Origin: Bacteroidota bacterium
GTDB lineage: Bacteria; Bacteroidota; Bacteroidia; AKYH767-A; OLB10
DNA length: 64,000 bases
Assembly: GCA_025352785.1 (NCBI GenBank)
Contig: JANXSD010000163.1
Location: forward strand, 11,028-75,027
Direction: 5' to 3'
Shown piece after piece: positions 4,588 to 38,334 of the stretch; positions within the stretch are counted from its first letter, which is position 1, and every line of letters begins with the position of its first letter. The notes beneath the pieces were generated by a model, which was not told the DNA's origin, searched no databases, and saw only the letters and a list, made by a program, of their open reading frames with translations. Made by a program: the position numbers and the translations under genes.

Positions 4588-4670
4588 ATGTTAGTTCAGA
4601 AACAAATTAGTTAATCTGTTTGCAAAGATTATTATTTGTGCATTTAGTTATTCATATCAAAAATAAAAAG

Positions 4671-5061
4671 GAAAGCAAACCTATAAGCCGGGTTCTGTAT
4701 TCATCAATTTGCATTGCTGAAATCCTGTCATTTATCTGCGATTGCGCTCACGCACTACCTGAATCAGCCTACCCATCAGGGCATCTTGTTTTGCAACAAG
4801 CTTCGAGCGAGCAGCCCTTCGCCCTGACCTATTTGGCTTTTCAACCCACAAGGTTTACCCTCTTGCATGTTACCATAACAAGACGTGAGCTTTTACCTCA
4901 CATTTTCACCCGTGCCTCACAAGGAGGCGGTTATTTTCTGCGGCCCTTTCTGTCAATCCATCGTTCCCAATGAATTGCCTTCCCGTTAGGAAGTGTGGTG
5001 CTCTGTGTTGCCCGGACTTTCCTCCCTCCGTAAACGAAGAGCGACAGGACAGTTTGCTTTC
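4671..5061 (-). ncRNA. rnpB: RNase P RNA, bacterial type A
   Basis: The minus-strand read contains GGAGGGAGGAAAGTCCGGGC near the 5' end and ACAGAACCCGGCTTATAGG near the 3' end (the two universally conserved P4 strands). It also has GAGGTAAAAGCTCAC and GCCAAATAGG blocks. The termini GAAAGCAAAC (5061..5052) and GTTTGCTTTC (4680..4671) pair as P1, followed by a T-rich run. Confidence 0.95.
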
Positions 5062-11495: not shown

Positions 11496-12884
11496 ATGAG
11501 TTTCGATCTAATTGTTATTGGAAGTGGTCCTGGTGGTTATGTTGCAGCAATTCGTGCTTCACAGTTAGGAATGAAAGTAGCTGTAGTTGAAAAGGAATCT
11601 TTAGGTGGGGTTTGCCTTAACTGGGGCTGCATTCCAACAAAGGCTCTTTTGAAAAGTGCTCAAGTTTTCGAATATCTAAAGCATGCTGCCGATTATGGTA
11701 TCACAGTTTCTGATTATAAAGCGGATTTCGGTGGGATGGTAAAAAGAAGTCGTGATGTGGCGGATGGAATGAGCAAAGGAATTCAATTTCTTTTTAAGAA
11801 AAATAAAATTGAAGTATTAAATGGTTTTGGAAAATTAAAGTCAGGAAAAAAAGTTGAAGTAACTGCTGCAGATGGTACTGTAACATTGCATGAAGCAAAT
11901 CATATTATGCTTGCAACTGGAGCACGTAGTCGTGAGTTGCCGAATTTAAAACAAGATGGTAAAAAAGTAATTGGCTATCGTGATGCAATGGTTTTACCCA
12001 CTCAACCGAAGAGTATGGTGATTGTTGGATCAGGAGCTATTGGATGTGAGTTTGCTTATTTTTATAATTCAATTGGTACTAAAGTTACGATTGTTGAATT
12101 CATGCCAAACGTTGTTCCTGTTGAAGACGAAGAAGTTTCAAAACAACTTGCTCGTTCATTCAAAAAACTTGGTATCGAAATCATGACAGAAGCAAGTGTT
12201 GAAGCTGTTGATACAAGTGGTGACGGTTGTAAGGTAACTGTTAAGACAAAAAAAGGAGAAGAAATTTTAGCAGCAGAAATTGTTTTATCAGCGGTAGGAA
12301 TTACTCCTAATATTGAAAATATCGGATTAGAAGAATGTGGTGTGATCACCGACAATGGCAAAGTTTTAGTAAACGATTTTTATCAAACAAATATACCAGG
12401 TGTTTATGCGATTGGTGATATTGTTAAAGGTCCGGCACTGGCACATGTTGCTTCTGCAGAAGGTATTTGTTGCGTTGAAAAAATTGCAGGTTTACCTGTT
12501 GAACCTATCAACTATAACAACATTCCAGGTTGTACCTATTGCTCTCCTGAAATTGCTTCTGTTGGATATACGGAGAAAGCCGCTAAAGAAGCTGGATACG
12601 AAATTAAAGTTGGTAAATTCCCTTTTTCTGCAAGTGGAAAAGCGAAAGCTGCTGGTGCTGCAGATGGTTTTGTAAAAGTAATTTTTGATGCAAAATATGG
12701 CGAATGGTTAGGAGCACATTTTATCGGCGCTAATGTTACTGAATTTATTGCTGAAGTAGTTGTTGCAAGAAATTTAGAAACAACAGGTCATGAAATTATA
12801 AAATCAATTCATCCACATCCCACAATGAGCGAAGCATTAATGGAAGCATGTGCAGCAGCTTATGGTGAAGTGATTCACATGTAA
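11496..12884 (+). CDS. lpdA: dihydrolipoyl dehydrogenase (E3)
   Basis: 462 aa. IGSGPGGY, redox-active GGVCLNWGCIPTK, and HPHPTMSE near the C-terminus. Confidence 0.96.
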   Translation: MSFDLIVIGSGPGGYVAAIRASQLGMKVAVVEKESLGGVCLNWGCIPTKALLKSAQVFEYLKHAADYGITVSDYKADFGGMVKRSRDVADGMSKGIQFLFKKNKIEVLNGFGKLKSGKKVEVTAADGTVTLHEANHIMLATGARSRELPNLKQDGKKVIGYRDAMVLPTQPKSMVIVGSGAIGCEFAYFYNSIGTKVTIVEFMPNVVPVEDEEVSKQLARSFKKLGIEIMTEASVEAVDTSGDGCKVTVKTKKGEEILAAEIVLSAVGITPNIENIGLEECGVITDNGKVLVNDFYQTNIPGVYAIGDIVKGPALAHVASAEGICCVEKIAGLPVEPINYNNIPGCTYCSPEIASVGYTEKAAKEAGYEIKVGKFPFSASGKAKAAGAADGFVKVIFDAKYGEWLGAHFIGANVTEFIAEVVVARNLETTGHEIIKSIHPHPTMSEALMEACAAAYGEVIHM

Positions 12885-23320: not shown

Positions 23321-26300
23321 CTAATTCGCAAAATTATAAATTGTAGTTCCACTAAATAAAACAAAACTCTTACTCCATGTTTCCATTGAATTTCTATGAC
23401 GAACAATGATATAATAATTATTTCCAGATGCAGCGGCAGGAAATGGAATTGTAGCATTTCCAGAAATGTTTAATACTCCTGTTGCAGCATACACTAATCC
23501 ATAAGGTGATGATGCTGCATGTAACTCAACAGTGATCGTATCCGTTTGTCCGGCTGCAATAATAGAAGTCATTTGTCCGCTGCCCAAATAAAACCCTTGT
23601 ATGAATACATGTAATTGTAATGATACATTATTACTAACTGTAAAGGATGGGCCAGTTGCAATTCCACAAATTGTTGTCACTCGTACAACACCTGTTGTAG
23701 CTCCAACAGGAACCGTTGCATTAATTTGATTGTCGCTTACAACAGAAAACAATGGTGCATTAATACTATTAAATGAGACTGCAGTAGTAGTTAAAAATCC
23801 AGATCCACTAATGGTGATTGATGTTCCAACAGCTGTAGAAGTAGGAGAATAACTTGTTATAACTGCCGGGTTAGATGCATTTACATTTATTGTATTTGAA
23901 ATCGCAGGACATAATGCAGGAGCCGCAGGAAATGTGATTGTCCAACTATTAATTGTTCCTACATCCGATGCGGCACGATCATACGCAAATAATTTCCAAG
24001 CACCATTAGGATTTATACTTCCAGAATTAATTGCAGCAAATGTTAAAATTGTTGTTGCAGGTGTACATCCTGTAATTGTGAACATGGTTGCCCATGGTTT
24101 ATACAAACCAGTATAGGGAGATCCAGTAGCTGGAATTTGTGCAGAACCTGAATCTGCAAAAACAGAATTTGTAAAATTATGACCATTACTTCCAATAGCA
24201 TTTACCAATCCTAATCGCTGACCACCAGGTGTTTCAAGATACATCTGAAGATCTGCATCCCATGTATGTGTTACATTAATGGATATGTAAATTTTTGCTG
24301 TAGTAATTGTTGATGTATATCCTGATACATTTATTGTGCTACTTACTCCAGTACAACTATTGTCAGGAATTGAAGCAGTAGTTGTATTACTAAATGTAAG
24401 TGGAGCATACGAAGCAACATCATAAGCACCACTTTGATTTACACTGAATGCAGTTGCATTCGCACCAGCAATATCAACTCCATTTTTTCTCCATTGATTA
24501 TAAGAACTTGATGAAGGAGTAAACGACAAGGAAACAGAACTGCTCGTACAAATTGTTGTTGCACTTGCGGCACTTACCACGCCTGGACTAGGACTATTCA
24601 AAAGATTAAGCGCTAACGTACTTACTATTCCACTTCCACATCCATTAGTTCCTGCAACAGAAATTGATCCCGTTGTTGCTCCAAACGTTACTGTAATTGT
24701 ATTTGTATTTATTCCTGTTGTGATACTTGCACCTGAAGGTAATGTCCAATTATAACTTGTTGCGTTTGCAATTGAAGCAACAGAATAAATATTTCCAGTA
24801 CTATTTTTACAAGAAGAAGTAGGTCCGCTAATCGCACCAGCAGCAGAAGGAAGTATTGAAACTGAAACTGAAAATAAAGGAGAACTTCCACCACTAAAAC
24901 ATGCATTAGAAGCTATAACACTTACATTACCTGAAATAGCAACTGCTGAAAAAGTAACTGTAATGCTTGTTGTATTATTTCCGGCGGTTATACTTGCACC
25001 TGTTGGCAACGACCACGTATATGTTGTAGCATTTGTAATGGAAGTAATTGAAAATACTACCGATGTCTGTCCTTGACAAACTGTAGCTGTTCCCGTAATA
25101 ACTCCAGCACTTGCAACAGTATTTAATTTCGTTAAATTAATTCCATTATCTGAACCAATAACTACTGGATTCGAACTAACAACACGAATGCGGTATCCAG
25201 AACCGGTTCCTACAGGTATTGTACAGGTAATTGTTCCAGAAGAAGAAACACTTGTTAATGTTCCGATGGAAATCGGACTGGAAAATGATCCTGCTGAATT
25301 TGATAATTGAGTAGTAAAAACATTACCAGCATTTGCTGGTCCATTCCCAGTGTAATCAACATTTAAATTTTGCCCAACACATAAATTTGTTGTAGAAAGT
25401 GTGTTTGTATTGAGCGTTGATAAAATTGCAGAGCTCGCTTGAATAGTAAAATTTACATCATTAATATCAAAGAAAATATTTCCTACTGCTTCTATTTTAA
25501 TACGCGCTTGAGTTGTTAATGTAGTTGGAACAGTTATTAATTCTGTACCATCATTTGGTGTACTAGCTGCAACAACATTTGGAAATGTTAATCCTCCATC
25601 TGTAGAAAAAGAAATCTTAACATTCGCACAGCTAATGGGTGAAATATTACTAGATGAAACATCCCACGTTACTGTTTGTGATGATCCAGAATTCCATATA
25701 ACAGCAGCATTTTGAACAGTAACTTTAAATGGAGTTGATGTATTAATTACCTGAACTTTTAATGTATCATCATTATGAGTAACACCTCCTCCACCACTTC
25801 TATTATCTCTAACAGTTAATCGAAATTTTAATGTTCGTGCATACGTTGGAAGGATTTCTCCAATTGTGGTTACATTATTTAAAATATCCGAAAGTTTTGG
25901 AAATGTTCTACTGGCACTTGTCACTGGAGAAAATGGTCGAAAGATCGGTGCATCTAAAGCTGGAGCATTCCACGCACCGCCTGTTGTTGTTTTATCAAAC
26001 TCTTCCCAGCTATACGTAATCGCATCCCCATCAGGATCCGAACCTACTCCAGTAATTGTAAATGGCGTTTTATATGGAATGACAAAATTTGCCGTTGCTC
26101 CAATGGATGCAAATGGAGGATTGTTTCCTGTAGCAGACTGTACAGCACAACCATTTCCAGTTCCTGTAACAGAAAAATTATAAATCTCATCAAAACTCCA
26201 GGTATGAAAATAAGCAATACTATGTTGGTCTAAATCATCGATGCCACAGATTCCGGCATACGCCATAATTGTTACTCCACTTCCAGGCTCGTATGCAGCC

Positions 26301-27403
26301 GATGCCGCACGATTTCCGCCACCGCATGATCCTAATACGCTATTGAAAGTATGATTCGCACCAAACTGATGTCCCATTTCATGAGCCACATAATCAACAT
26401 CAAAAGAATCACCAACAGGACTAGAATTTCCAGTTACGCCTTTAGCTTTGCTTGTTCCACATGGACTATTTAATTGTGCAATTCCTCCACCTCCAGTACT
26501 GAAAACGTGACCAATATCGTAGTTTGCAGTTCCAATTACACTATTAATATTTGTTTGATTTTCGGTCAACATGGTGCTCCCATTTGAATTCGTATATGGA
26601 TCAGTTGCCGCATTTAAATAAACCAAAAGGTTGTCGTTAGCGATCATCACCATGCGGATAGAAACTTCAGTTTCATAAATGCCGTTAACACGTAACATAC
26701 TCGCTACCATACCAGACATAGCACCTGAAGCAGTTCCACCTTTCGTAGCAGCATATTCTCCTGTACAAGCGAGTGCAAGTCTGTAAGTTCTTAATTGCGT
26801 TCCGTTAGATCGTAAGGTTGAATGATTTGCTGTAATTAAATTATTTTTACCAATGTGCTTCTCCTTTTCTGTTTCGCAAATAAATGAATTATATGCTTTC
26901 AAATCGTTGCTATAGTAAACGATATAATCACGAGTATTAAACTGATTATAAGGATCTATAAAAACACTTCCCTCAGGAGATAAAACCATCGCTTGAAATC
27001 CAAGATCTGTAAAACTAACTTTGATGATATCAGTAGGATGATCTACACCTTGCCCCGAAAATGTTTTAAACTCAGGAAACTTCTGCGCTAATTTAGGTTC
27101 CATCATGACCGTTTCCACCATTTTAAAAGAATGTATGGTTCCATTTGGGAAAGGAATTTCAAGAAAAACTGTACTTTTCTTACCAGCAGAAGTAAATTCC
27201 ATGGGTGAACTTGATAGATATGTCTTTAAAGAAAAAATATCTAACTGAAATAATTCGAATTTTGAAGGAAGTGCGTATCGTTCTGACCCATTTGCCAATT
27301 GATTTGATTGGATCTTTGTCCAGTATTTTTCAAACGAGGATTGCGCATACAGGCAGTTTAAACCAAAGCATAACACTAAAAGTACAAGTAGTGGTTTCTT
27401 CAT
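23321..27403 (-). CDS. giant secreted zinc metalloprotease (reprolysin/M12B-like) with PKD-like repeats, proprotein-convertase P domain and IPT/TIG domain
   Basis: I start it at the ATG giving MKKPLLVLLVLCFGLNCLYAQ (the track begins 11 codons upstream, at 27436). Zinc motif VAHEMGHQFGANH (HExxHxxGxxH). Tandem roughly 85-aa repeats (C.G......Y.V......TSY.W.LP.GASIT.G..T..ITV.F). P-domain-like block THTWDADLQMYLETPGG...GAWKLFAYDRAASDVGTINSWTITF. IPT-like block ITSYSPTSTAVGTSITISGSGF. The C-terminus is not a recognisable T9SS CTD. Confidence 0.85.
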   Translation of the reverse strand: MKKPLLVLLVLCFGLNCLYAQSSFEKYWTKIQSNQLANGSERYALPSKFELFQLDIFSLKTYLSSSPMEFTSAGKKSTVFLEIPFPNGTIHSFKMVETVMMEPKLAQKFPEFKTFSGQGVDHPTDIIKVSFTDLGFQAMVLSPEGSVFIDPYNQFNTRDYIVYYSNDLKAYNSFICETEKEKHIGKNNLITANHSTLRSNGTQLRTYRLALACTGEYAATKGGTASGAMSGMVASMLRVNGIYETEVSIRMVMIANDNLLVYLNAATDPYTNSNGSTMLTENQTNINSVIGTANYDIGHVFSTGGGGIAQLNSPCGTSKAKGVTGNSSPVGDSFDVDYVAHEMGHQFGANHTFNSVLGSCGGGNRAASAAYEPGSGVTIMAYAGICGIDDLDQHSIAYFHTWSFDEIYNFSVTGTGNGCAVQSATGNNPPFASIGATANFVIPYKTPFTITGVGSDPDGDAITYSWEEFDKTTTGGAWNAPALDAPIFRPFSPVTSASRTFPKLSDILNNVTTIGEILPTYARTLKFRLTVRDNRSGGGGVTHNDDTLKVQVINTSTPFKVTVQNAAVIWNSGSSQTVTWDVSSSNISPISCANVKISFSTDGGLTFPNVVAASTPNDGTELITVPTTLTTQARIKIEAVGNIFFDINDVNFTIQASSAILSTLNTNTLSTTNLCVGQNLNVDYTGNGPANAGNVFTTQLSNSAGSFSSPISIGTLTSVSSSGTITCTIPVGTGSGYRIRVVSSNPVVIGSDNGINLTKLNTVASAGVITGTATVCQGQTSVVFSITSITNATTYTWSLPTGASITAGNNTTSITVTFSAVAISGNVSVIASNACFSGGSSPLFSVSVSILPSAAGAISGPTSSCKNSTGNIYSVASIANATSYNWTLPSGASITTGINTNTITVTFGATTGSISVAGTNGCGSGIVSTLALNLLNSPSPGVVSAASATTICTSSSVSLSFTPSSSSYNQWRKNGVDIAGANATAFSVNQSGAYDVASYAPLTFSNTTTASIPDNSCTGVSSTINVSGYTSTITTAKIYISINVTHTWDADLQMYLETPGGQRLGLVNAIGSNGHNFTNSVFADSGSAQIPATGSPYTGLYKPWATMFTITGCTPATTILTFAAINSGSINPNGAWKLFAYDRAASDVGTINSWTITFPAAPALCPAISNTINVNASNPAVITSYSPTSTAVGTSITISGSGFLTTTAVSFNSINAPLFSVVSDNQINATVPVGATTGVVRVTTICGIATGPSFTVSNNVSLQLHVFIQGFYLGSGQMTSIIAAGQTDTITVELHAASSPYGLVYAATGVLNISGNATIPFPAAASGNNYYIIVRHRNSMETWSKSFVLFSGTTIYNFAN

Positions 27404-27620
27404 AAATTGATAATTTAAGGGAATTATAAATTCCATCTTTTAATTTCCTGATTTCTTTGGAAGAAAGCCTTAAAGCCCCAAGAATGGTTGCTAAGTTCAG
27501 AATAATCAAACGCTAAGTCAAGGAAAACTAAATTAAACATGACTTATCATCAACTTTACCATTTAAATGACTTGATTTTAGTAATCTTTTGTAATATTTT
27601 GAAATAAAGTAAGAAAAAAC

Positions 27621-27650
27621 TTGCTTTATTCGTATAAGATCTTAAATTTG
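27621..27650 (+). promoter_or_regulatory. Bacteroidota-type promoter for the mini-ORF: -33 TTG (27621..27623), 19-nt spacer, -7 TAAATTTG (27643..27650)
   Basis: Perfect TAnnTTTG with consensus spacing. The box ends 33 nt upstream of ATG 27684. Confidence 0.55.
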
Positions 27651-27683
27651 CAATTGTATACGTTGACTTGAAAACACATAAAA

Positions 27684-27863
27684 ATGAAAAGCATACTACT
27701 CAAATCATTACCCTTAATTGCATTCTTTGTAATTATGGCAATTCCAATGTTTGCCCAGAAAAGTGATCCTAATGTACCTATTGATGGTGGATTAAGCCTT
27801 TTGTTAGCTTCTGGAGCCGCATACGGAGTTAAAAAATTGAAGAATAAACGAAAAGAAAAGTAA
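27684..27863 (+). CDS. 59-aa pre-peptide: signal peptide + PIDGG motif + TM helix + poly-basic tail (candidate exosortase XrtF substrate)
   Basis: One codon below the track's 60-aa cutoff. My translation is MKSILLKSLPLIAFFVIMAIPMFAQKSDPNVPIDGGLSLLLASGAAYGVKKLKNKRKEK*. It is flanked by its own promoter and terminator, with xrtF starting 103 nt downstream. Confidence 0.7.
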   Translation: MKSILLKSLPLIAFFVIMAIPMFAQKSDPNVPIDGGLSLLLASGAAYGVKKLKNKRKEK

Positions 27864-27879
27864 TTGTCAATTCATCATA

Positions 27880-27913
27880 AAAAATGGTTAGCCTTAAAGC
27901 TAACTTTTTTTTT
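27880..27913 (+). terminator. rho-independent terminator after the mini-ORF
   Basis: AAAAATG-GTTAGC (27887..27892), loop CTTAAA, GCTAAC (27899..27904), then TTTTTTTTT (27905..27913). It starts 17 nt after the stop codon. Confidence 0.6.
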
Positions 27914-27966
27914 GTTCGTACGTATCATTTTGTTCAGCTATATTAGCAACATTATAGCTGATAATA

Positions 27967-28527
27967 ATGATACTGAAAATAATCAAAGATCCACGCCAAC
28001 AACAAATTGCTCTGTTTGTCATTAAAGCAGTGTTATTATATATAGTTTGGTTTATCCTTTACGATTTTCTTGTAGCACAAGATGGAGTAATCAATGTATG
28101 GCTAAATCATAGAGTTGCAACTGATGCTTCCTATTTTCTTGATGTTTTCGGACTCAACGGTGGTACCATTCCGGGAAACCATCAAACTGTTCTAATGATA
28201 AAGGGAGAAACTATGGTTGGAGTAGGAAACCCTTGTAACGGACTAGAATTATTTGCTCTCTTTGCAGGATTCATAATTTGCTTCCCAGGAAATACTAAAT
28301 CCAAATTTTGGTTTATCCCTTTAGGCTTTTTTATTATTCATCTTGTCAATGTTTTAAGAACTACGGCATTAGCATATATAGAATATAAAGCTCCGGAATA
28401 TTTAGATTTCAATCATCATTATACATTTACAATTATTGTTTATGCAATCATTTTTTTACTTTGGATGACATGGGTAAATCGCTATTCAGGATTTAATATC
28501 ACACCTGAAAATAAAAAATCAGCATAA
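27967..28527 (+). CDS. xrtF: exosortase family protein, XrtF type
   Basis: 186 aa and polytopic. Exosortase-type residues occur in canonical order: Cys in VGNPCNGLELF, Asn/Arg in HLVNVLRTTAL, His in DFNHHYTF. The small size and Bacteroidota host fit XrtF. Confidence 0.85.
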   Translation: MILKIIKDPRQQQIALFVIKAVLLYIVWFILYDFLVAQDGVINVWLNHRVATDASYFLDVFGLNGGTIPGNHQTVLMIKGETMVGVGNPCNGLELFALFAGFIICFPGNTKSKFWFIPLGFFIIHLVNVLRTTALAYIEYKAPEYLDFNHHYTFTIIVYAIIFLLWMTWVNRYSGFNITPENKKSA

Positions 28528-28528
28528 G

Positions 28529-29023
28529 ATGTTAGCAAATAAATTTATTCGAAATACGTTAATTATTATTTTATCTGTGTTCATGCTATGGCTCGGATTC
28601 GAAAGGGATGAAAAACTGATCGTAATGAAGAACTATCAATTTACTTTTGTTAATCGCTATCCGAAAGAACAAGTAACAAATTATGATTCTGTAATGAAAA
28701 ACTTGAAAGGATTTAAATTACCATCAAGATTACAATCGTCAATATTCTATAGTTTAAGTTATCTTGTACTTGCTACCTTAATCTTATATCTGCTTTCATT
28801 TTCTGGATTTATTGCAAAACTTACTGCATCATTATATTTCATCTATATGATCCTCTGCTTTTTCTTAATAAAGATTGGTGCTATGGGAGTTGATTATAGA
28901 TTAAGTATCGGTTTATCACATTACCTCGAAGATTTGTTCCTTTCTCCATTCTTCGTACTAGCATTAGCAGTAATTATAAAAGCATTCGGATTCACTCCCG
29001 AAATTCCATCACATAAAATTTAA
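28529..29023 (+). CDS. exosortase F system-associated membrane protein (by position)
   Basis: 164 aa, about 4 TM helices, starting 1 nt after the xrtF stop. A small membrane protein immediately after xrtF is the defining context of the XrtF partner family. I cannot verify the match by motif. Confidence 0.6.
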   Translation: MLANKFIRNTLIIILSVFMLWLGFERDEKLIVMKNYQFTFVNRYPKEQVTNYDSVMKNLKGFKLPSRLQSSIFYSLSYLVLATLILYLLSFSGFIAKLTASLYFIYMILCFFLIKIGAMGVDYRLSIGLSHYLEDLFLSPFFVLALAVIIKAFGFTPEIPSHKI

Positions 29024-29074
29024 GTTGGTATATTTCATTAATAATACCAATTCCAAAACAATAAACTCAATCTT

Positions 29075-30004
29075 ATGAATATATGGATCTTAATGCCGGT
29101 ATTTAATGATTGGGAATCCTGTGCAATCCTATTAGAAAAGGCAGAAGTAGAACTAAAAGAAAATCCAACATTTAATTATTCTTTTGCAATAGTAAATGAT
29201 TTTTCAACCCTTCCTATCCCTGATAATTTTGAAAACAATTTTAATAATCATGTAAAAATAATTCAACTGAATAGAAATGTAGGCCATCAACGTGCGATTG
29301 CATTAGGCTTATGTTTTATCCAAAAAGAATTACCATGCGATTATGTTATTGTAATGGATGCAGATGGTGAAGATCGTCCACAAGATATTCCATTACTTAT
29401 TGAAGAAGCTATCCAGCAAAATGGTAAAATAATTTTCGCAAAAAGAACAAAGCGTTTTGAAGGATTGTGGTTTCGCTTCTTTTATAAATGGTATAAATTC
29501 TTTTTTCGATTACTAACAGGAAAAACTATTGCTTTCGGAAATTTCTGTGTTATACCTTATGATAAATTAAAAAATATAGTTTATGTTTCTGAATTGTGGA
29601 ATCATTTTTCAGGTGGTATCTTAAGATCAAGAATCCCCTACTCAAGTATACCATTAGAAAGAGGTGTTCGATATGCTGGCCAATCAAAAATGAATTTTAT
29701 TTCATTAGTGATGCATGGCTTATCAGCGATTTCAGTTTATACGGATACACTGGCAGTAAGAATACTACTTTCATCATTAGGACTAATCTTTATAGCACTT
29801 TTAAGCATTTTTATAGTCGCAGGAATTAGATTATTCACTCCATTCGCAATTCCAGGATGGGCTTCTTTTGTTGTTATTGGAATACTTATAATAATCTTTC
29901 AAGCGTTTATGATATCGTTGTTCTTAGTATTTAATGTTTTAAATTATCGCACTCAACAACATTTCATTCCCGCTTTAGAATACAAAAATTTTATAGAAGA
30001 ATAA
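29075..30004 (+). CDS. GT2 polyprenyl-phosphate glycosyltransferase (GtrB / ArnC / DPM1-like)
   Basis: 309 aa. MPVFND, VMDADGEDRPQDIP (DxD region), RYAGQSKMNF, then two C-terminal TM helices (LIFIALLSIFIVAG, PGWASFVVIGILIIIFQAFMISL), as in GtrB-type enzymes. Confidence 0.8.
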   Translation: MNIWILMPVFNDWESCAILLEKAEVELKENPTFNYSFAIVNDFSTLPIPDNFENNFNNHVKIIQLNRNVGHQRAIALGLCFIQKELPCDYVIVMDADGEDRPQDIPLLIEEAIQQNGKIIFAKRTKRFEGLWFRFFYKWYKFFFRLLTGKTIAFGNFCVIPYDKLKNIVYVSELWNHFSGGILRSRIPYSSIPLERGVRYAGQSKMNFISLVMHGLSAISVYTDTLAVRILLSSLGLIFIALLSIFIVAGIRLFTPFAIPGWASFVVIGILIIIFQAFMISLFLVFNVLNYRTQQHFIPALEYKNFIEE

Positions 30005-30007
30005 TTA

Positions 30008-30730
30008 ATGAATACATCTACAAATACAGCAACTTACATTGGACAAGAATTAGAACTTTTCAAGAAAGCTTATAATTGGAAACAATACTATCGAAACATA
30101 ATTCTTCCATTTCTAAAAGATGATGTTTTGGAAGTAGGTGCTGGCATCGGAGCAACGACTGAACACTTAGTAAATACCAATGTTAAAACATGGACGTGTT
30201 TAGAACCAGATCCAGAACTTGCAAAAGTTGTAGAACAATTATTAAATAACAAACAATTACCTAATGTATGCAAACTTATTATCGGCACAACTGACGATCT
30301 GGATACATCAATAAAATATAATGCTATCATTTATATGGATGTTATAGAACATATAGAAGATGATGCTGCTGAATTAAAAAGAGCAGCAGAATTGTTAAAA
30401 CCAGAAGGGTATTTAATCATTCTTGTGCCTGCACACAACTGGTTAAGAAGCCCATTAGATGATGCTATTGGTCATTACAGAAGGTATAATAAGGGCATGC
30501 TAAAAAATGTGGTTCCATCTTCATTAAAACAAATTAGATTATCTTATTTAGACTCTGTAGGATTAATAGCTTCCCTGGGAAATAAAATGCTACTAAAAAA
30601 ATCCTATCCAAACGAAAAACAAATTCGTATTTGGGATTCGGGAATGGTTCCTATCTCCAAATTAATAGACCCATTTTTAGGCTTTAACTTTGGCAAGTCG
30701 GTATTGGGTATTTGGCAAAAAAAGTCATAA
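30008..30730 (+). CDS. class I SAM-dependent methyltransferase
   Basis: 240 aa. Motif I VLEVGAGIGATT, then IIYMDVIEHIEDD and LKPEGYLIILVP. It starts 3 nt after the GT2 stop. Confidence 0.85.
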   Translation: MNTSTNTATYIGQELELFKKAYNWKQYYRNIILPFLKDDVLEVGAGIGATTEHLVNTNVKTWTCLEPDPELAKVVEQLLNNKQLPNVCKLIIGTTDDLDTSIKYNAIIYMDVIEHIEDDAAELKRAAELLKPEGYLIILVPAHNWLRSPLDDAIGHYRRYNKGMLKNVVPSSLKQIRLSYLDSVGLIASLGNKMLLKKSYPNEKQIRIWDSGMVPISKLIDPFLGFNFGKSVLGIWQKKS

Positions 30731-30738
30731 AGAACACG

Positions 30739-32217
30739 ATGAACCGCAAGCAATATGAACTATTAATACTGTCAATTCTAGGCATTGCTTCCATAGCTGT
30801 TTTATTGTTAAGGATCATTTTTATTAAATCCTATTTGCCAGAAACTGGAGGAGTATCAATAAATGTTGTTTACGGAATAGAACAACTATTATCGACTGGA
30901 AAACTTTATATTAATCCTGAAGATGCGCCCTTTTCAATTATTCAATATATGCCCCTTCATTATCATATTGTAGCATATATTGCCACTTTAATAAACATTC
31001 AATCAGATGTACATTCCGTCATGGTACTGAATAGACTAATCTGCTTCATTTATGATATTCTATCCGTAGTATTTATTATTAATTTTATAAGAAAAACATT
31101 TCCCAAAATCGGAATGCGATTAGCAATCTCTTGTGGATTGCTATATTTCTTATTAATACCAAGTATTGTATTTGCAAGGGTTGACAATTTATACCTATTA
31201 CTTTGGATACTTTCAATAAGTTTCTTCGCTTCAATTTTCCATCATGAAAAAAGTAATTTAATTTCCATTAAAAAATCCATCTTATTTGCCGGTATTTGTT
31301 CCGCTCTGGCATTATTTACAAAACAAACAGCAATATTCTTAATTGTATTCAATATAGCGTTCTTAATCCTAATTTATAAGGAATATAAAACAACTATTCT
31401 TTACATAGTAAGCTTTGGAACCACGCTTATAATTTTATCACTTTTCCTTATTAAAGAAAATCCAATTGATTTTAAATTTAATGTAATTGATGGATTAAAA
31501 AATGGCATTAATTTAAATTGGTTTCTAGAAGTGTTTTTAAAAAACTACTTCATGAAATATACAATACTAATATGTAGTGGGATTTTTACAGGTTATATGT
31601 TACTACTACAAAAAAAATCAATGCTTCATTTGTTTTTAGGGTCAAGCATACTCTACTATTTTCTTATTGCTATTGTCTTTAGTTTAAAAGGCGGATCAGG
31701 ACCGAATTATTACTTAGAATTCAACATATTAAGCATCTTCGGAATTTGTTTATTGATAGACGACCAACCTGATATTTCATTTAACTATTTTCGTTTTGCT
31801 GCAATCTTAATACCTGTATTCTTACTAGCCTGCATGAATGATAAGGGATGGGGATTTCTCTCTTGCCGCAAAAAAGCAATTTCCGAATATGTGATGTGTC
31901 AATCAGTTGCTCATTATGTTAAAACTAATCTTAAGAAAGATAATTACGTTTTAACAGCGTTTCACAAAGAAAATAGTTTGAATTTATTTTTAACGCCTAA
32001 AGCACTTTTTCCTTGCCGAGAGGTTGCATTGTATTTTACTTACCCGATGGGCGTATTTAAATTTGAAAAATTCAAAACTCAATTATTAAAGAAGCAAGTT
32101 CAATATTATATTGATGAAAAAGGTCATCTTCCCACGACATTTCTTCATGAGGACATTTCGAATTTTGTAGTTGATACAACAATCGGCAATTATACAATTT
32201 ATAAAACAAATAAATGA
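30739..32217 (+). CDS. GT-C-like (ArnT/PMT-like) polytopic membrane glycosyltransferase, paralogue 1 of 3
   Basis: I start it at ATG 30739 (MNRKQYELLILSILG), 8 nt after the methyltransferase stop and matching the N-termini of paralogues 2 and 3; the track's TTG 30712 overlaps the upstream gene. There are about 11-13 TM helices plus a roughly 130-aa C-terminal soluble domain. Shared blocks are LPETGGVSIN..YGI, NPE.APFSIIQY.PL.Y, R.DNLYL, L.TKQT and LFPCREVA. Confidence 0.55.
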   Translation: MNRKQYELLILSILGIASIAVLLLRIIFIKSYLPETGGVSINVVYGIEQLLSTGKLYINPEDAPFSIIQYMPLHYHIVAYIATLINIQSDVHSVMVLNRLICFIYDILSVVFIINFIRKTFPKIGMRLAISCGLLYFLLIPSIVFARVDNLYLLLWILSISFFASIFHHEKSNLISIKKSILFAGICSALALFTKQTAIFLIVFNIAFLILIYKEYKTTILYIVSFGTTLIILSLFLIKENPIDFKFNVIDGLKNGINLNWFLEVFLKNYFMKYTILICSGIFTGYMLLLQKKSMLHLFLGSSILYYFLIAIVFSLKGGSGPNYYLEFNILSIFGICLLIDDQPDISFNYFRFAAILIPVFLLACMNDKGWGFLSCRKKAISEYVMCQSVAHYVKTNLKKDNYVLTAFHKENSLNLFLTPKALFPCREVALYFTYPMGVFKFEKFKTQLLKKQVQYYIDEKGHLPTTFLHEDISNFVVDTTIGNYTIYKTNK

Positions 32218-33701
32218 CAAACAGTTTTTACGAACGACTAATTTGCACTATGCTTTTCATCTATGCATTCGCAACACTTGTTATTCGCTTTGTATTTTCA
32301 ACTTCTAATCTTCCTGAAATGGGGGGAGGAATGTCGATTAACATGCTTTATGGAATTGAACATTTACGACAAACTGGCCTTCTATACATAAATCCAGAAA
32401 AAGCACCGTTTTCAATTATTCAATATACACCTCTATATTATTATTTCATCAATTTCCTCATAAAAATTATTCCATTCGAATTAAATTTGCATCAAGTTAT
32501 TGTATTACACCGTATAATTTGCCTCTCAACAAATATTTTTTATAGCATTCTAGTGGCCTTAACATGCAAAAATTTATTCCCAAAAGTCACGAAATTAAAT
32601 ATCATTTCTATTGCACTTATCATTCTTATCACCACCCCAAATTTAAATTTTGAGCGAATCGATAATCTTTACTTATTATTTTCAGTATTAGCTATTCGTT
32701 TTTTCTTGGGATATCTTAAAAAGAAGGAGTCGACTTCGTTAAAAAATTCTGGTCAAATTATTTTTGCAGGCTTAGCTTGTGGGTTAGCCTTATTAACTAA
32801 ACAAACTGCAGTATGGCTCATAGGCTTAATTAGCATCTGGTTGTTGTTTTTTGAATACAACTTTAAACTTTGGTTAAAATACATTGTATCGATCATATTG
32901 GTATTCTTACCATTAATTTTAGTTTTTAGTAACGGGCATTTATTAGATCTAAAATTAAATATTATTGATGGTCTTAAAAATGGAATTGGTATCGATTGGT
33001 TTATCCAGGTATTTATAAAAGGCTATTTCACCAGGTTTTCGCTACTAATCGTTTTTGGTCTATACATTGGTGGATGGAAATTATTTGAGAAGTCGGCTTC
33101 GCTAAAATCATTTCTTGGATTTAGCATCTTATATTTCTTTTTCGCAGCTCTAGTATTTAGTTTAAAATATGGAGCAACTCAAAATTATTTCATAGAATTT
33201 ACCATTGTGGTTGTAATTGGTATTTGCTATTTACTCAATCAGGAACCGCTCAAATACAATTCATATTTAGCTTTTACAGCTCTTTATATCCCATTTTTAT
33301 TAATGACTTGCGCTACTGATAAATACTGGCAAAATATTGCCTTACTTAAATCCTCTGAAAAAGATTTTAAAGTTTGCGAAGATGTAGCTTCCTACGTATC
33401 TAAAAACACATTTAATGGGAATTACATTTACTCCAATTTCCATACGGAAAATTCTCTAAATCTGATGCTGTCAAAAATTGCAATATTCCCTTGTCGTGAA
33501 GTTGCATTTATTCAAACATATCCACATGGCATTTTCAACTTTAAACAATTTGGTGAATTACTAGCACAAGGAAAAATTCAATATATCATTGATAAAACAA
33601 ATCACTTTCCAGATAAAATTTTATATGCAACTCCTATAAATTATACTGCCGAAAAATCATTTGGCGATTATACTATTTATAGATTTCAACAAAATAAATA
33701 G
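32214..33701 (+). CDS. GT-C-like polytopic membrane glycosyltransferase, paralogue 2 of 3
   Basis: 495 aa. Its ATG overlaps the paralogue 1 stop (ATGA). It has the same conserved blocks: LPEMGGGMSIN, NPEKAPFSIIQYTPLYYY, RIDNLYLL, LLTKQTAV, IFPCREVA. Confidence 0.55.
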   Translation: MTNSFYERLICTMLFIYAFATLVIRFVFSTSNLPEMGGGMSINMLYGIEHLRQTGLLYINPEKAPFSIIQYTPLYYYFINFLIKIIPFELNLHQVIVLHRIICLSTNIFYSILVALTCKNLFPKVTKLNIISIALIILITTPNLNFERIDNLYLLFSVLAIRFFLGYLKKKESTSLKNSGQIIFAGLACGLALLTKQTAVWLIGLISIWLLFFEYNFKLWLKYIVSIILVFLPLILVFSNGHLLDLKLNIIDGLKNGIGIDWFIQVFIKGYFTRFSLLIVFGLYIGGWKLFEKSASLKSFLGFSILYFFFAALVFSLKYGATQNYFIEFTIVVVIGICYLLNQEPLKYNSYLAFTALYIPFLLMTCATDKYWQNIALLKSSEKDFKVCEDVASYVSKNTFNGNYIYSNFHTENSLNLMLSKIAIFPCREVAFIQTYPHGIFNFKQFGELLAQGKIQYIIDKTNHFPDKILYATPINYTAEKSFGDYTIYRFQQNK

Positions 33702-33726
33702 ATTACATTAATACTAAATTCCAATT

Positions 33727-35208
33727 ATGAAAAATGCATTGTATGAAAAGATAATTTTAACTGTATTATCATTGTATGCACTTTCCATTCTTATTGTTAG
33801 AGTCGCTATCATCTTTTCTTTCTTACCTGAAACAGGAGGAGTATCCATTAATATGATGTATGGCATAATGCATCTTAGTAAAACAAGCATCCTCTATAGC
33901 AATCCGGAATTTGCGCCCTTTTCTATCATTCAATATATGCCACTATATTATTATCTAATTTCCGGTATTGGAAAATTATTTAATATCTCAAATGATGTGC
34001 ATCAGATGCTTGTAGTTAATAGAATGATATGCTTTTTAAGTGGAGTTGCCTATAGCTTTTTATTGTTTTATTGTATCAGAAAGTTTTTCCCTAAAGTTGG
34101 ATTTCGAATCGCATCAGCAATTGGATTGTTGATGTTTATCCTAATCCCTAGTCATAATTATGGTCGACTTGATAATCTATATTTGGTATTTTGTATGGCA
34201 GCGATATATACATTCATAAATTACTTACAAATTAAGTATCGAGACGAAAAAATCAATTTGCAAGCATTACTACTTTCAGGATTGTTTTGCAGTTTAGCTG
34301 TACTTACTAAACAAACCGGAATTATCATTACTGTATTTTTTTGTGGATGGCTTTTAGTAATCGAAAAATCTCCACTTCGATTGCTGCAATTTCTTTTGGC
34401 ATTTATCCTACCAACTGCAATAGGTATTTACCTAACATTGCCTTCTACCCCACTTGACTTTAAACTCAATACCATAAATGGAATAAAAAATGGTATTGAT
34501 TTAAATTGGTTTTATCAAGTAACCGTAAAATATTATTTTGCGGAATCTGGATTCTTGATCGCCTTCGGATTATATATCGCCGGATGGTTATTGTTCGAAC
34601 GTAAACCTGGGTTAAAATTATTTATATCAGGATCTATTTTATTTTTATTCGCAACAGCATTTTTAATGAGTATGAAAGGTGGAGGGAATCCCTATTACTT
34701 TTTAGAATTTACCTTCATGGTATTTATCGGTATTTGCTTTTTGATCAACACTCAACCTGATAACTACAAAAAATATATGCCCTATATTACTTTATTGCTT
34801 CCTTTCTTTTTAATGTCGACCATTAATGATAAAGGTTGGCATGAATTAGGGCGAATGAAAAAAGCTAAAAAAGATTATAATGATTGTCTACAAGTAAGTA
34901 ATTATATCAACCAAAATATTAGAAAGGGAAATTATATCTATTCGAATTTCCACTTGGAGAATACGCTTAATCTAATGCAAAGTGAAACTGCATTATTTCC
35001 TTGCCGTGAAGTTGCATTCCGGTTTACTTATCCACAAGGTGTTTTTAAATTCAGTCAGTTCGATACGCTTATGAAAAATAATCAGGTTCAATATATCATT
35101 GCTAACGCTGATGATTTTCCTGTAAAGATTTTAGATACTCCAATTGTTAATTATAAAAAGGATACCGTAATTGCCGATTATACTATTTATCAACGAATCA
35201 CAAATTAG
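33727..35208 (+). CDS. GT-C-like polytopic membrane glycosyltransferase, paralogue 3 of 3
   Basis: 493 aa with the same conserved blocks: LPETGGVSIN, NPEFAPFSIIQYMPLYYY, RLDNLYLV, VLTKQTGI, LFPCREVA. Confidence 0.55.
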   Translation: MKNALYEKIILTVLSLYALSILIVRVAIIFSFLPETGGVSINMMYGIMHLSKTSILYSNPEFAPFSIIQYMPLYYYLISGIGKLFNISNDVHQMLVVNRMICFLSGVAYSFLLFYCIRKFFPKVGFRIASAIGLLMFILIPSHNYGRLDNLYLVFCMAAIYTFINYLQIKYRDEKINLQALLLSGLFCSLAVLTKQTGIIITVFFCGWLLVIEKSPLRLLQFLLAFILPTAIGIYLTLPSTPLDFKLNTINGIKNGIDLNWFYQVTVKYYFAESGFLIAFGLYIAGWLLFERKPGLKLFISGSILFLFATAFLMSMKGGGNPYYFLEFTFMVFIGICFLINTQPDNYKKYMPYITLLLPFFLMSTINDKGWHELGRMKKAKKDYNDCLQVSNYINQNIRKGNYIYSNFHLENTLNLMQSETALFPCREVAFRFTYPQGVFKFSQFDTLMKNNQVQYIIANADDFPVKILDTPIVNYKKDTVIADYTIYQRITN

Positions 35209-35218
35209 TAATTAAATT

Positions 35219-36253
35219 TTACTTGCTTCTTGCTTTACGAAAAAGAATACTGTTACAAATTGCAACGAAATATTTAAAGTCAGTAGTAAATGGATTATTC
35301 GCATACGACTTAAGATATTTTAATTCAGAGTCAACTATTTCCTCTAACGTGCGAGGCATGTCTACATAAAATGGAGGTAATAATCCTGGCTTAGCGTCTT
35401 TACGTTTATCTTGCAATTCTTTACTATACAAACTATGGTAATGACGGCTTAGCGGACGCACTCCAACAATTTTAATATCGCCACGTAATAAATTAAAAAT
35501 CATTGGAAGCTCATCCACCCAAATTTTCCGTATTAACTTTCCCCATGACGTAACTCGAAAATCATCAGCAAATTTCCCGCCCTCTGCTAAACTATTTTGC
35601 TCATAAATATATTCTTGCAAATATTCAGCATAAGGATACATCGTACGCAACTTAAAAACTTTTATATTTTTACCATCCTTGCCAATGCGAGTCATTGCAA
35701 ACACAGGGCCGTAAGATGGATTTAAATCATAATGCGGAACTTTTTCTTTCTTACCAACAAAATAAGTAAGGTTTTCGAATTGATAAACTTCAACAATTCG
35801 AAAGCCACAAGAAACTAATCTTCCAAGTGCTTCTGCCTTCGACATAACACGATTTCTGCCATTCGTGATAAAGAAGTAAAACTTTTTCAAAATGGGCATC
35901 TTTGGAAAAAACCGCTTGAAAGTGAAGTCGAAAATAAAATAAATATGTGCTAAACCCGGAATAAACTTTTTTAGTAATCGTGACTTTCTCTGCTCTTGTG
36001 TTTCAACTAAACCAATATAATATCCGCCAGTAGGAAGTTTTTGATTAACAGCTTCCTGAAATTTATTTACGAATCGTATATCATTAATCTTTTTAAGATT
36101 AATAATTGCATTGCAATCACCCTCTTCAATGTTTTGAACATTAAACGAAGTGGTAGTCTTAAACACTTTTGTATTCGAATGTGATAGATCTACGTATTTA
36201 CGTAGTAACTGTTCTATTTCCGAATGAATTTCGTTAATGAATGCTTTCTTCAT
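35219..36253 (-). CDS. bacterial sugar transferase (polyprenyl-phosphate glycosyl-1-phosphate transferase family) with atypical N-terminal domain
   Basis: 344 aa. The catalytic core is GPVFAMTRIGKDGKNIKVFKLRTM ... VDELPMIFNLLRGDIKIVGVRPL (PglC/WbaP-type blocks). The preceding roughly 180 aa have no clear reentrant or TM helix directly before the core. Confidence 0.8.
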   Translation of the reverse strand: MKKAFINEIHSEIEQLLRKYVDLSHSNTKVFKTTTSFNVQNIEEGDCNAIINLKKINDIRFVNKFQEAVNQKLPTGGYYIGLVETQEQRKSRLLKKFIPGLAHIYFIFDFTFKRFFPKMPILKKFYFFITNGRNRVMSKAEALGRLVSCGFRIVEVYQFENLTYFVGKKEKVPHYDLNPSYGPVFAMTRIGKDGKNIKVFKLRTMYPYAEYLQEYIYEQNSLAEGGKFADDFRVTSWGKLIRKIWVDELPMIFNLLRGDIKIVGVRPLSRHYHSLYSKELQDKRKDAKPGLLPPFYVDMPRTLEEIVDSELKYLKSYANNPFTTDFKYFVAICNSILFRKARSK

Positions 36254-37189: not shown

Positions 37190-37311
37190 TTAATTGAATG
37201 GCACTAAAATAAGGAAAAGATCCTGCTAACGGTTAAAACAAGAAGGCAAGTTGATCCATGCAAATATAATAGTTGATAATCCAAAAACTAATAGTATTTT
37301 TGACATACTCT

Positions 37312-38334
37312 ATGAAACAATTTTATTTTATTCTGCTAGTTTTAGTTTTTCCAACTCTCCTCTTCAGCAGCTGTTCAAATGATTTAGATGTATTAGATAA
37401 TTATAAAGAAATTCCCATTGTTTATGGCCTGGTTAATCCAAACCAAAATATTAATTACGTCAGGCTTGAAAAAGGGTATTTAGGTGTTGGAAATGCATTG
37501 GTGATGGCTCAGCAACACGATAGTATTTACTATGATACTTCTCAAGTTGACCTCCAACTCATTGCCTTGAAATCAGGTGTGGATTTTACTAGTTATAAAT
37601 TAACTCCCGTCTTCAATATATTTAAAGATCAAGGTCTCTTTACAGATGCCGACCATATTCTCTACCAATTAGTGATGAAAGATCAAAATGGCGATACAAT
37701 TAAACTTACATCAGGTATTGATTATAAATTGAAATTTACTAATAAAGTTACAGGCTTAATTGATACAGCCATCACTAAAATAATTGAACCTTTAACTGTT
37801 CAAAATTTTGGAACCTCCACTACTTTTCCTAAAATCAATTTAGCTGCAAAAGACCCCTATAAAATTAGGCTTTTTGCTAGTAAATATGCAAAAGTTTATG
37901 GGATGATCTTTCGCTTTAAGTATTATGAAAAAAATAATACTACTCAACTAATTACCGTCAAAACTCTCGATTATTACGTTAAAGATGTTGTTAGCCGAAC
38001 TATTACCGCCACCTCTGATATTGAATTTCCACTCGATGGGCAAACTATATTTCAATATTTAGGAGCAAATATCAAAACCGACCTTACCGTTTCAAGGTCT
38101 GTTAAAAGTTGCGACTTTGTATTAACTGCTGGCACGCAAGAATTTTATGATTATTACCAAATCAATAAACCTTCTAATACAGTAAATTATATTCCGGTTT
38201 TTTCAAATCTTAGCGTCGGAAAAGGAGTCTTTGCATGTAGAAATACTTCTTTGGTTAGCGATGTAATTTTTAATGATCTTACCCTCGACTCACTTTATAA
38301 CGGTAGCTACACGAAGCATATTTTCCAAAATTGA
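37312..38334 (+). CDS. hypothetical lipoprotein
   Basis: I start it at ATG 37312 (MKQFYFILLVLVFPTLLFSSC, lipobox-like). A perfect -7 box TATTTTTG at 37295..37302 lies downstream of the track's TTG 37273. Function unknown. Confidence 0.6.
   Translation: MKQFYFILLVLVFPTLLFSSCSNDLDVLDNYKEIPIVYGLVNPNQNINYVRLEKGYLGVGNALVMAQQHDSIYYDTSQVDLQLIALKSGVDFTSYKLTPVFNIFKDQGLFTDADHILYQLVMKDQNGDTIKLTSGIDYKLKFTNKVTGLIDTAITKIIEPLTVQNFGTSTTFPKINLAAKDPYKIRLFASKYAKVYGMIFRFKYYEKNNTTQLITVKTLDYYVKDVVSRTITATSDIEFPLDGQTIFQYLGANIKTDLTVSRSVKSCDFVLTAGTQEFYDYYQINKPSNTVNYIPVFSNLSVGKGVFACRNTSLVSDVIFNDLTLDSLYNGSYTKHIFQN

Follow-up and report, generated by a model that had tools for sequence, protein, structure and literature searches.

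The window analysed in this study, a 64,000-nucleotide stretch of contig JANXSD010000163.1 from a Bacteroidota bacterium, carries between positions 27,621 and 36,253 an exosortase gene, xrtX, that is followed, after a small partner gene, by a set of glycosylation genes. Comparison with related loci revealed two separable modules that assort independently: an XrtX core, formed by a mini pre-peptide gene, xrtX and the partner gene, and a cassette that encodes a lipid-carrier glycosyltransferase of family GT2, a methyltransferase dependent on S-adenosylmethionine (SAM), and polytopic glycosyltransferases of the GT-C type. The linkage between XrtX and the cassette does not extend beyond part of a single family-level clade of Bacteroidia. 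Within this clade the mini-peptide changes together with the presence of the cassette, and from this a facultative coupling can be proposed, in which a sugar, lipid-linked and probably methylated, would come from the cassette, with the peptide, or the conjugate made of it by XrtX, as a candidate acceptor; our confidence in this proposal is about evenly balanced.

Two modules that assort independently

At least 16 further public loci have the gene string of the window, so the arrangement is not a product of chance (the relatives are named L001 and so on as fetched loci, the window being the reference stretch). A survey of XrtX in contigs of the GTDB, with one genome per species, yielded 80 loci, and the cassette was searched for in them by tblastn with the window proteins, with a GT-C profile at E<=1, and by phmmer for the GT2 and the methyltransferase. 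These forward searches agreed in finding the cassette only in L001, L003, L004 and L007-L012, and its start also in L002, which is truncated. About half of the syntenic relatives are devoid of it (L005, L006, L013-L017 and L019-L021, as well as L104 and L105, which were fetched separately); in those of the survey the partner gene converges directly on a sugar-phosphate transferase gene on the minus strand, and then come LysE (minus), a protein of 353 residues and DnaK, many of these loci having a reprolysin-like protease upstream. Among the 59 more distant XrtX loci neither the cassette nor the transferase was present in a single case.

The reverse test started from the GT-C family and inspected the DNA upstream of its members. 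All members with at least 27% identity for which upstream DNA was available are preceded by the methyltransferase and the GT2 genes; beside the most distant relative (P0171 in L100, 24% identical) the GT2 is present and the methyltransferase is absent. GT2, methyltransferase and GT-C form a fixed triad, and this triad is the unit. The reverse test also revealed XrtX upstream of the cassette in L085, L087 and L092, and three loci fetched through their XrtX proteins (L102, L103 and L106) contain both modules as well. Both modules are found at the syntenic site in the window, L001, L003, L004, L007-L012, L085, L087, L092, L102, L103 and L106; in all loci with both modules the gap between the partner and the GT2 gene is 13-51 nt and the orientation is always the same. 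The cassette also occurs by itself. In L101 and L093 the order is protease (minus), GT2, methyltransferase, GT-C, transferase (minus), LysE (minus) and DnaK, the mini-gene, XrtX and the partner being absent from the same site, and the cassette begins at its own intergenic region. Elsewhere the triad lies after a pair of extracytoplasmic function (ECF) sigma and anti-sigma genes and before GH3 and isocitrate dehydrogenase genes (L098/L099), or after a gene for the E1 component of a 2-oxoacid dehydrogenase (L095, with 60% G+C).

The original prediction, made from the sequence of the window, had linked the exosortase with the GT2, methyltransferase and GT-C genes in one integrated glycosylation-and-sorting system. 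The linkage stood in the sense that it is kept in approx. 17 loci, and it failed as a general rule, given its absence from 12 syntenic and 59 distant XrtX loci; it is neither a chance adjacency nor a general feature of XrtX. An obligate integrated system has to be abandoned, since the linkage is limited to part of the clade and the cassette exists without XrtX (L101, L093, L098/L099 and L095).

A second line of evidence comes from the mini-peptide. In 17 of 17 cassette-bearing loci the peptide is free of Cys (...AQKS[D/N]PNVPIDGG...), and in 13 of 13 cassette-less loci it contains Cys, within the sequence ...AQ[N/S]CNPN[V/I]PIDGG... or, in the rearranged L027, ...AQHSNPCIPIDGG... (HSNPC); two point mutations suffice to pass from one form to the other. 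A word-index search returned few members of the window's own clade and added one further covariation locus, which is an inferred one only. Fitch parsimony requires two to three state changes on the trees from every marker. The cassette-less L005/L017 (and L105) are sister to the large cassette-bearing clade with bootstrap values of 94-100% (XrtX plus partner, transferase, DnaK and protease), and the window's group joins this large clade in at most 7% of the bootstrap replicates; in the transferase tree the window is placed among cassette-less lineages, and L106, which has both modules, goes with L101, which has only the cassette. The xrtX and partner genes separate the mini-gene from the cassette and show no division into two haplotype clades, hence simple block inheritance does not explain the covariation. 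These sequence comparisons, made on a small sample, are suggestive of a functional link between the peptide and the cassette and do not prove it. A second covarying position, Ala/Val in the helix of the sorting signal, was considered and discarded, its association being imperfect and broken by L105.

The XrtX core and its mini-peptide

The exosortase of the window reaches 201.2 bits with the NCBIfam model of XrtX (NF046081, cutoff 170) and 89.4 bits with that of XrtF (TIGR04128, cutoff 90). Therefore, the name XrtF that it was first given does not apply, and the enzyme is an XrtX, a sister family with models of its own; public annotations of its homologues read 'XrtF' when older and 'exosortase X' when newer. 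An alignment of 25 homologues shows no variation at its Cys90, Arg131 and His150, i.e., the Cys/Arg/His set of exosortases and archaeosortases is complete. The mini-gene, 103 nt upstream of xrtX, encodes a protein that scores 53.3 bits with PID_CTERM (NF046080, cutoff 26), which bears out its earlier description as a sorting-signal precursor and provides the XrtX of the window with its cognate PID-CTERM protein, the one substrate that can be seen for it. This protein is built of a signal peptide, a cleavage site FA↓Q, the residues QKSDPNV, the PID motif, one transmembrane (TM) helix and a basic tail. The partner protein gives 37.3 bits with the XrtX-associated model NF046082 (cutoff 75), its sole NCBIfam match at E<=0.01, so that an adjacent exosortase-F-associated protein was not found; the proteins encoded at the equivalent position reach 167.6 bits in Hymenobacter and 61 bits in a Flavobacteriales metagenome-assembled genome (MAG). 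Given this sub-cutoff score, the conserved position and the scores of the equivalents, we read the partner as a diverged subfamily of the XrtX-associated protein.

In the XrtX survey, a PID-CTERM mini-gene of 56-99 residues is present in 63 of the 80 loci, nearly always directly upstream, and an open reading frame (ORF) for the partner follows XrtX directly on the 3' side in 68. Mini-peptide, XrtX and partner, found in 63-68 of 80 loci, are the conserved and near-universal core; its hosts are Bacteroidia MAGs, Hymenobacter, Adhaeribacter, Botryobacter, Crocinitomicaceae, Salibacteraceae and other Flavobacteriales. Some taxonomic labels look wrong: L003 and L011 are labelled Bifidobacterium yet have the gene order of the window's Bacteroidia clade, and L033, L035, L053 and L077 are labelled Rhodanobacter, Chitinophaga pinensis, Hydrocarboniphaga or Saccharibacteria, with an XrtX like the Bacteroidota-labelled ones. 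Several XrtX-like genes are without a PID-CTERM mini-gene upstream (L039, L047, L049, L055, L062 and L077; L022, L023, L043 and L046) and have there a conserved protein of approx. 1489 residues ending in ...QLTGQKDED, or a membrane protein of 112-116 residues; these may represent a different exosortase subtype. A gene of 424 residues that is often found 3' of XrtX in Flavobacteriales was discarded as a component, as it encodes serine hydroxymethyltransferase (SHMT), a housekeeping enzyme.

When 1.84 billion representatives were scanned in full by HMMER with the 59-residue peptide, 557 relatives were returned, the best 150 of these 557 having 43-139 residues, and the word-index search with the mini-peptide gave 95, all of 54-94 residues and all with PF28310. 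No large protein ending in PID-CTERM was found in the XrtX loci surveyed. Since these relatives are small and no large protein of the loci carries it, PID-CTERM appears to be essentially a signal of mini-proteins. The large proteins encoded upstream of XrtX were considered as further substrates and ruled out, their C-termini being sorting domains of the type IX secretion system (T9SS). Adjacency of XrtX and T9SS cargo is recurrent in itself: in 18 distant loci (L025, L028, L031, L035, L041 and L084 among them) one or two genes for large T9SS-tailed proteins immediately precede the mini-gene in the same orientation, the protein of L084 belonging to the DUF8202 family, and in L003, L007, L008, L010, L012, L017 and L102-L105 a cargo of approx. 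1500 residues with GEVED, MopE, PKD_6 and Por_Secre_tail domains lies between the protease and the mini-gene, where the window has none.

The cleavage contexts of the mini-peptides (...FA↓QKS..., ...FAMA↓QDP... and ...HA↓QPV...) agree with the Q-rule described for signal peptidase I substrates of Bacteroidetes (PMC5837995), and from them a mature part of approx. 7-15 residues before PID is predicted across the loci. That the Cys of the cassette-less peptides could be a lipobox Cys was rejected, as LFA↓Q suits the Q-rule and Q/N at positions -2/-1 make a poor lipobox.

Right after the stop codon of the mini-gene there is a stem-loop with a run of nine T. An alignment of 17 loci of the clade shows it as a 9-bp stem with compensatory changes at four pairs; its position is shared by L001-L021, L025, L041, L050, L056, L065, L069 and L078, and longer hairpins, richer in G+C, are found at this point in the loci of Hymenobacter and Adhaeribacter. 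This suggests an attenuated read-through into xrtX, and the layout would be that of a highly expressed precursor or structural gene followed by read-through into the processing genes. The promoter proposed upstream of the mini-gene is a weak, positional call, given that its motif TAnnTTTG occurs in the window no more often than expected (93 versus 101); a sigma-70 scan of the window was uninformative (47 found versus 55 expected).

The cassette proteins, the locus and its neighbours

The GT2 contains DADGEDRPQDIP, and DADGED and two hydrophobic helices at the C-terminus are visible in its sequence. Phmmer gave full-length alignments of it with ArnC (9hwj, E 3e-12, residues 3-284 of 309) and with GtrB (sll0501, 5ekp, E 1e-11, residues 4-283 of 309), so that the DxD domain is accompanied by homology that includes the C-terminal TM hairpin; its assignment as a polyprenyl-phosphate enzyme of the GtrB/ArnC type was correct. 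The best NCBIfam models, PgfS (top, 56 bits), ArnC and PpgS, gave 49-56 bits against equivalog cutoffs of 370-529, and an identity at the level of these three equivalogs was not reached. The methyltransferase, with a VLEVGAGIG motif, is a generic class I SAM enzyme that is 45-58% identical even in distant cassettes without XrtX; sequence searches found no solved relative of it. In two loci its gene is split or shortened (L004, approx. 12059-12744; L009, approx. 12017-12559), both on contigs named 'tig…', and these could be frameshift errors or real decay.

The three large paralogues are 41-43% identical to each other, and the first is 43-48% identical to the single-copy orthologues of the relatives. 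Sequence searches gave no clear family match: no paralogue has a hit in NCBIfam; in Pfam, paralogue 3 reaches 26.6 bits with PMT_2 (cutoff 26.1), paralogue 2 reaches 23.9 bits with PMT (cutoff 22.7) and 25.7 bits with PMT_2 (cutoff 26.1), and paralogue 1 remains below cutoff with 19.9 bits; and a profile of the GT-C family found nothing significant among the PDB sequences, with no hit to ArnT and Pmt2 as the best match (E 0.55). The assignment was therefore settled by fold comparison. An AlphaFold2 model of paralogue 1, built on an alignment of 42 sequences, has a predicted local distance difference test score (pLDDT) of 90.8 and a predicted template modelling score (pTM) of 0.90, and in a Foldseek search of the PDB its 23 best matches were, without exception, GT-C enzymes, led by ArnT (5f15/5ezm, E 1.7e-6, TM-score 0.58-0.61) and including STT3/AglB, DPY19, AftA, ALG9, PimE, AftD/B and Pmt. 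All three paralogues keep 22 invariant columns of the family, among them R147/D149 and K195/Q196; with regard to the acidic residue that GT-C enzymes conserve in their first periplasmic loop, an LPETGG after TM1 is near-invariant in the family and its E35, conserved in at least 90%, would be a candidate. On the strength of the predicted structure the three proteins are GT-C glycosyltransferases, as had been supposed from topology and short motifs, and a family of another kind was not matched. In 5.8 billion proteins this family amounts to approx. 50 clusters at 90% identity, and its named members are all 'hypothetical protein'. The three genes together were seen only in the window and L001 (L002 breaks off in the GT2 gene), and in the tree the duplicates arise inside the window's sub-lineage; the three copies are a lineage-specific expansion.

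The coordinates are collected in Table 1. Seven plus-strand genes run from 27967 to 35208 with spacings of 1, 51, 3, 8, -4 and 25 nt, and the stop codons of paralogue 3 and of the convergent transferase are 10 nt apart; the ORF list reproduced every coordinate and spacing of the original prediction. Paralogue 1 has an alternative TTG start at 30712; the ATG at 30739 is favoured by the public gene call P0121 (492 residues) and by the lengths of the orthologues. The G+C content of the window is approx. 30-37% overall, and there is no compositional break at the locus.

Table 1. Features of the XrtX locus, in positions of the window
Feature	Position	Strand	Basis or remark
Possible promoter, TAAATTTG	27643..27650	+	Fits the Bacteroidota -7 motif TAnnTTTG; 34 nt 5' of the mini-peptide ATG
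Mini pre-peptide, 59 residues	27684..27863	+	PID-CTERM sorting-signal precursor, presumed XrtX substrate; NF046080
Stem-loop GGTTAGC-N6-GCTAACT plus T9	27886..27914	+	Resembles an intrinsic terminator; between mini-gene and xrtX
Exosortase X (XrtX), 186 residues	27967..28527	+	NF046081
XrtX-associated small polytopic membrane protein (partner), 164 residues	28529..29023	+	NF046082 below cutoff, and position
GT2 polyprenyl-phosphate glycosyltransferase, ArnC/GtrB/PgfS type, 309 residues	29075..30004	+	PF00535, phmmer
Class I SAM-dependent methyltransferase, soluble, 240 residues	30008..30730	+	PF13489, PF08242, PF08241
GT-C paralogue 1, 492 residues	30739..32217	+	AlphaFold2 and Foldseek; orthologue of the single copy of relatives
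GT-C paralogue 2, 495 residues	32214..33701	+	Pfam PMT, invariant columns, tree; lineage-specific duplicate
GT-C paralogue 3, 493 residues	33727..35208	+	Pfam PMT_2, invariant columns, tree; lineage-specific duplicate
Polyprenyl-phosphate sugar-phosphate transferase (Bac_transf), convergent	35219..36253	-	PF02397

The convergent transferase matches PF02397 with 84.3 bits (cutoff 27) over residues 183-331, and the WbaP, WcaJ and EPS_sugtrans models all stayed below their cutoffs on it. It remains at the syntenic site with XrtX alone, with the cassette alone or with both, and is absent beside cassettes found elsewhere; from its distribution it is best described as a conserved syntenic neighbour. 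The surroundings in the window are housekeeping genes (aminotransferase, YchF, YebC, DnaK and a two-component pair), and no Wzx, Wzy, Wza or Wzc was found in the neighbourhood. The window has no system of the PEP-CTERM/XrtA kind either, as its sorting signal has PID for a motif, XrtA was not matched and no export genes for exopolysaccharide (EPS) lie nearby.

Other neighbours were recorded. A reprolysin-like metalloprotease of 1371 residues with PKD_6 and P-domain (23321-27436, minus strand) is a conserved divergent neighbour of the XrtX module, and has no recognised T9SS or PID-CTERM tail. The protein of 353 residues (37273-38334, plus strand), kept between LysE and DnaK in all relatives, has a hydrophobic, lipoprotein-like N-terminal segment and no match in Pfam or NCBIfam. 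A full-length bacterial RNase P RNA of class A lies at 4668-5060 on the minus strand (230.9 bits). Outside the window's clade, a Wzc-like protein (Wzz, GNVR and AAA_31 domains) is encoded on the opposite strand one to three ORFs upstream of XrtX in L028, L031, L034, L035, L038, L053, L054/L081, L061, L074 and L084, nine loci of the Flavobacteriales type having the kinase divergently upstream; in L081 it heads a polysaccharide locus with GT2, acetyltransferase, CMP-sugar synthase, aminotransferase, NeuB and Wzx. Hymenobacter XrtX loci have MoxR as neighbour and no polysaccharide genes beside XrtX. As gene neighbourhoods, the Wzc, NeuB and Wzx cases echo the classical association of exosortases with EPS, and they are not a rule.

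A possible coupling, its alternatives and its known relatives

From the gene identities, the fold, the separability of the modules, the covariation and the hairpin, which are observed, we infer a chemistry, an acceptor and a co-transcription as follows. Both modules would probably be read as one transcription unit, in which a leaky terminator 3' of the mini-gene would keep the peptide in excess over the enzymes. The precursor of 59 residues would be exported by Sec and cut by signal peptidase I at FA↓Q; the Gln thereby exposed at the N-terminus is expected to cyclise to a pyroglutamyl residue, while the PID-CTERM helix would anchor the precursor in the inner membrane. XrtX, through its Cys, Arg and His, would then cleave at PID together with the partner, and a peptide of approx. 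8-10 residues, QKSDPNVP(ID), would be released or transferred by XrtX to an acceptor. On the cytoplasmic face the GT2 would load one sugar onto undecaprenyl phosphate, and the methyltransferase, being cytoplasmic, most plausibly acts on this lipid-linked sugar or on its nucleotide precursor, probably methylating it. After flipping, the GT-C enzymes would pass the sugar to periplasmic acceptors, and the three diverged copies suggest three acceptors, sites or linkages. Where both modules are present, Ser3 of the mini-peptide or a conjugate made by XrtX would be the candidate acceptor, and it is the covariation that points there; the ArnT-like architecture and the cassettes without XrtX point to a lipid or a glycan. 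In a more specific version, which we put forward tentatively and hold to be rather doubtful, the product would be a pyroglutamyl-capped surface peptide of 8-10 residues joined by XrtX to an envelope acceptor, with Ser3 O-glycosylated by a methylated sugar, or with the Cys linked otherwise when the cassette is absent, and the GT-C paralogues would diversify the decoration.

Several observations weigh against facultative coupling in general. The covariation comes from two to three independent events in one clade, placed on neighbour-joining trees of short proteins, and distant cassette-less XrtX clades such as Hymenobacter also have Cys-free peptides. In most genomes XrtX is found without the cassette, and in at least four lineages the cassette is found without XrtX and must then have an acceptor other than the peptide. 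In fold and architecture the closest match is with ArnT, an enzyme that modifies a lipid and not a peptide. Moreover, no flippase is encoded in the locus, as the original prediction had already remarked. Serious consideration is due to the possibility, which we do not favour and by no means dismiss, that there is no functional link, i.e., that the cassette decorates a glycolipid or glycan of the envelope (lipid A or lipopolysaccharide core, or a lipid-anchored acceptor), in the way of ArnC-ArnD-ArnT and FlmF2-NaxD-FlmK, and that the site next to XrtX is simply permissive for insertion. It accords with the separability of the modules in both directions, with the fold and domain layout of ArnT, with the order of the triad (GT2, cytoplasmic modifier, GT-C), which parallels the Arn pathway, and with the separate intergenic start of the cassette in L101 and L093; it does not account for a perfect association of peptide and cassette over the independent events, in spite of xrtX and the partner gene in between, nor for the constant orientation and the tight junction of 13-51 nt to the partner gene.

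The convergent transferase could indicate that it and the cassette make or decorate a polysaccharide to which XrtX attaches the peptide in the manner of PEP-CTERM/XrtA, an improbable explanation in our judgement. The transferase is a constant neighbour in approx. 25 loci, and the Wzc-like kinase of the nine Flavobacteriales-type loci, one of them with a NeuB/Wzx cluster, goes in the same direction. However, neither Wzx, Wzy, Wza or Wzc nor further transferases are encoded near the locus in the window, cassettes elsewhere do without the transferase, and the Hymenobacter loci have no polysaccharide genes beside XrtX; the transferase itself is on the opposite strand and is kept whichever module is present, as are LysE, the 353-residue protein and DnaK, so its position looks like plain synteny. 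As for the obligate exosortase-F machine of all seven genes that was first envisaged, its compact same-strand string with an ATGA overlap, kept in approx. 17 loci, gave it some appeal, but the comparative data already contradict it and we regard it as very improbable: the exosortase is not XrtF, the cassette is missing from half of the syntenic relatives and from every distant XrtX locus, it also occurs alone, and it is in the window's sub-lineage alone that three GT-C copies are found.

Facultative coupling, which we continue to prefer, can be compared with several known systems. The closest is the XrtX/PID-CTERM/associated protein set of the databases (NF046081, NF046080 and NF046082; PF28310), to which the exosortase and the signal of the window belong above cutoffs and the partner by its expected position; the GT2-methyltransferase-GT-C cassette is no part of that definition, and most XrtX loci are without it. 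A literature search found no paper on XrtX or PID-CTERM, which are known as curated hidden Markov models. XrtF of Flavobacterium johnsoniae (Fjoh_1448/1449) is likewise one of the short exosortases of Bacteroidota and has a small membrane partner encoded beside it. Haft reportedly described XrtF in 2012 as being without a recognised sorting signal. In F. johnsoniae, loss of xrtF or of the gene for the associated protein abolishes biofilm formation and surface colonisation; its substrates are unknown, and no sorting signal is recognised for it (PMC10936215). XrtX, unlike XrtF, has PID-CTERM mini-peptides encoded next door.

On the side of the cassette, the Arn and Flm pathways of lipid A modification follow the same three-step logic: in ArnC-ArnD-ArnT and in FlmF2-NaxD-FlmK of Francisella, a GT2 charges undecaprenyl phosphate, a cytoplasmic enzyme modifies the sugar, and a periplasmic GT-C transfers it, in the case of ArnT to a lipid. 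ArnC is the best solved relative of the GT2 and ArnT the best fold match of the GT-C proteins; nevertheless, the modifier of Arn and Flm is a deformylase or deacetylase and that of the window a SAM methyltransferase, sequence comparison shows no significant similarity to ArnT, the equivalog cutoffs are not reached and no flippase of the ArnE/F type is present. In GtrA-GtrB-GtrC, CsbB/YfhO and the Pgf system of Streptococcus mutans (PgfS/PgfM) a lipid-carrier GT2 is also combined with a polytopic GT-C that is active outside the membrane, whereas in the window the match to PgfS is of 56 bits for a cutoff of 500, GtrA is absent and a methyltransferase is added. PEP-CTERM/XrtA and the archaeal ArtA/PGF-CTERM system share with XrtX the tripartite signal, the membrane enzyme with Cys, Arg and His and the association with glycan genes, and the substrates of ArtA are glycoproteins that receive a C-terminal lipid. 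In contrast, the substrate in the window is hardly more than a signal peptide and a sorting signal, with a product of 8-10 residues and a PID motif, outside of any EPS locus. The triad and its GT-C family were hitherto unannotated and, as far as we searched, the combination of modules and the covariation of peptide and cassette are new.

To our knowledge, the action of bacterial exosortases and the target of attachment have been unsettled since the family was defined in 2006-2012. Exosortase genetics has so far provided phenotypes of biofilm formation and colonisation only (PMC10936215). XrtX is a minimal system, made up of a single enzyme, its one partner and a single mini-peptide that leaves 8-10 residues on maturation, a product so small that it is directly traceable by mass spectrometry, and the present comparison adds to it the definition of an unannotated GT-C family in a fixed triad that is Arn-like in logic. 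The locus is therefore a testable lead on exosortase substrates, with the concrete hypothesis that the presence of a lipid-carrier glycosylation cassette tracks a Ser/Cys switch in the peptide. If Ser3 is indeed glycosylated, this would be the first defined pair of substrate and modification for any bacterial exosortase.

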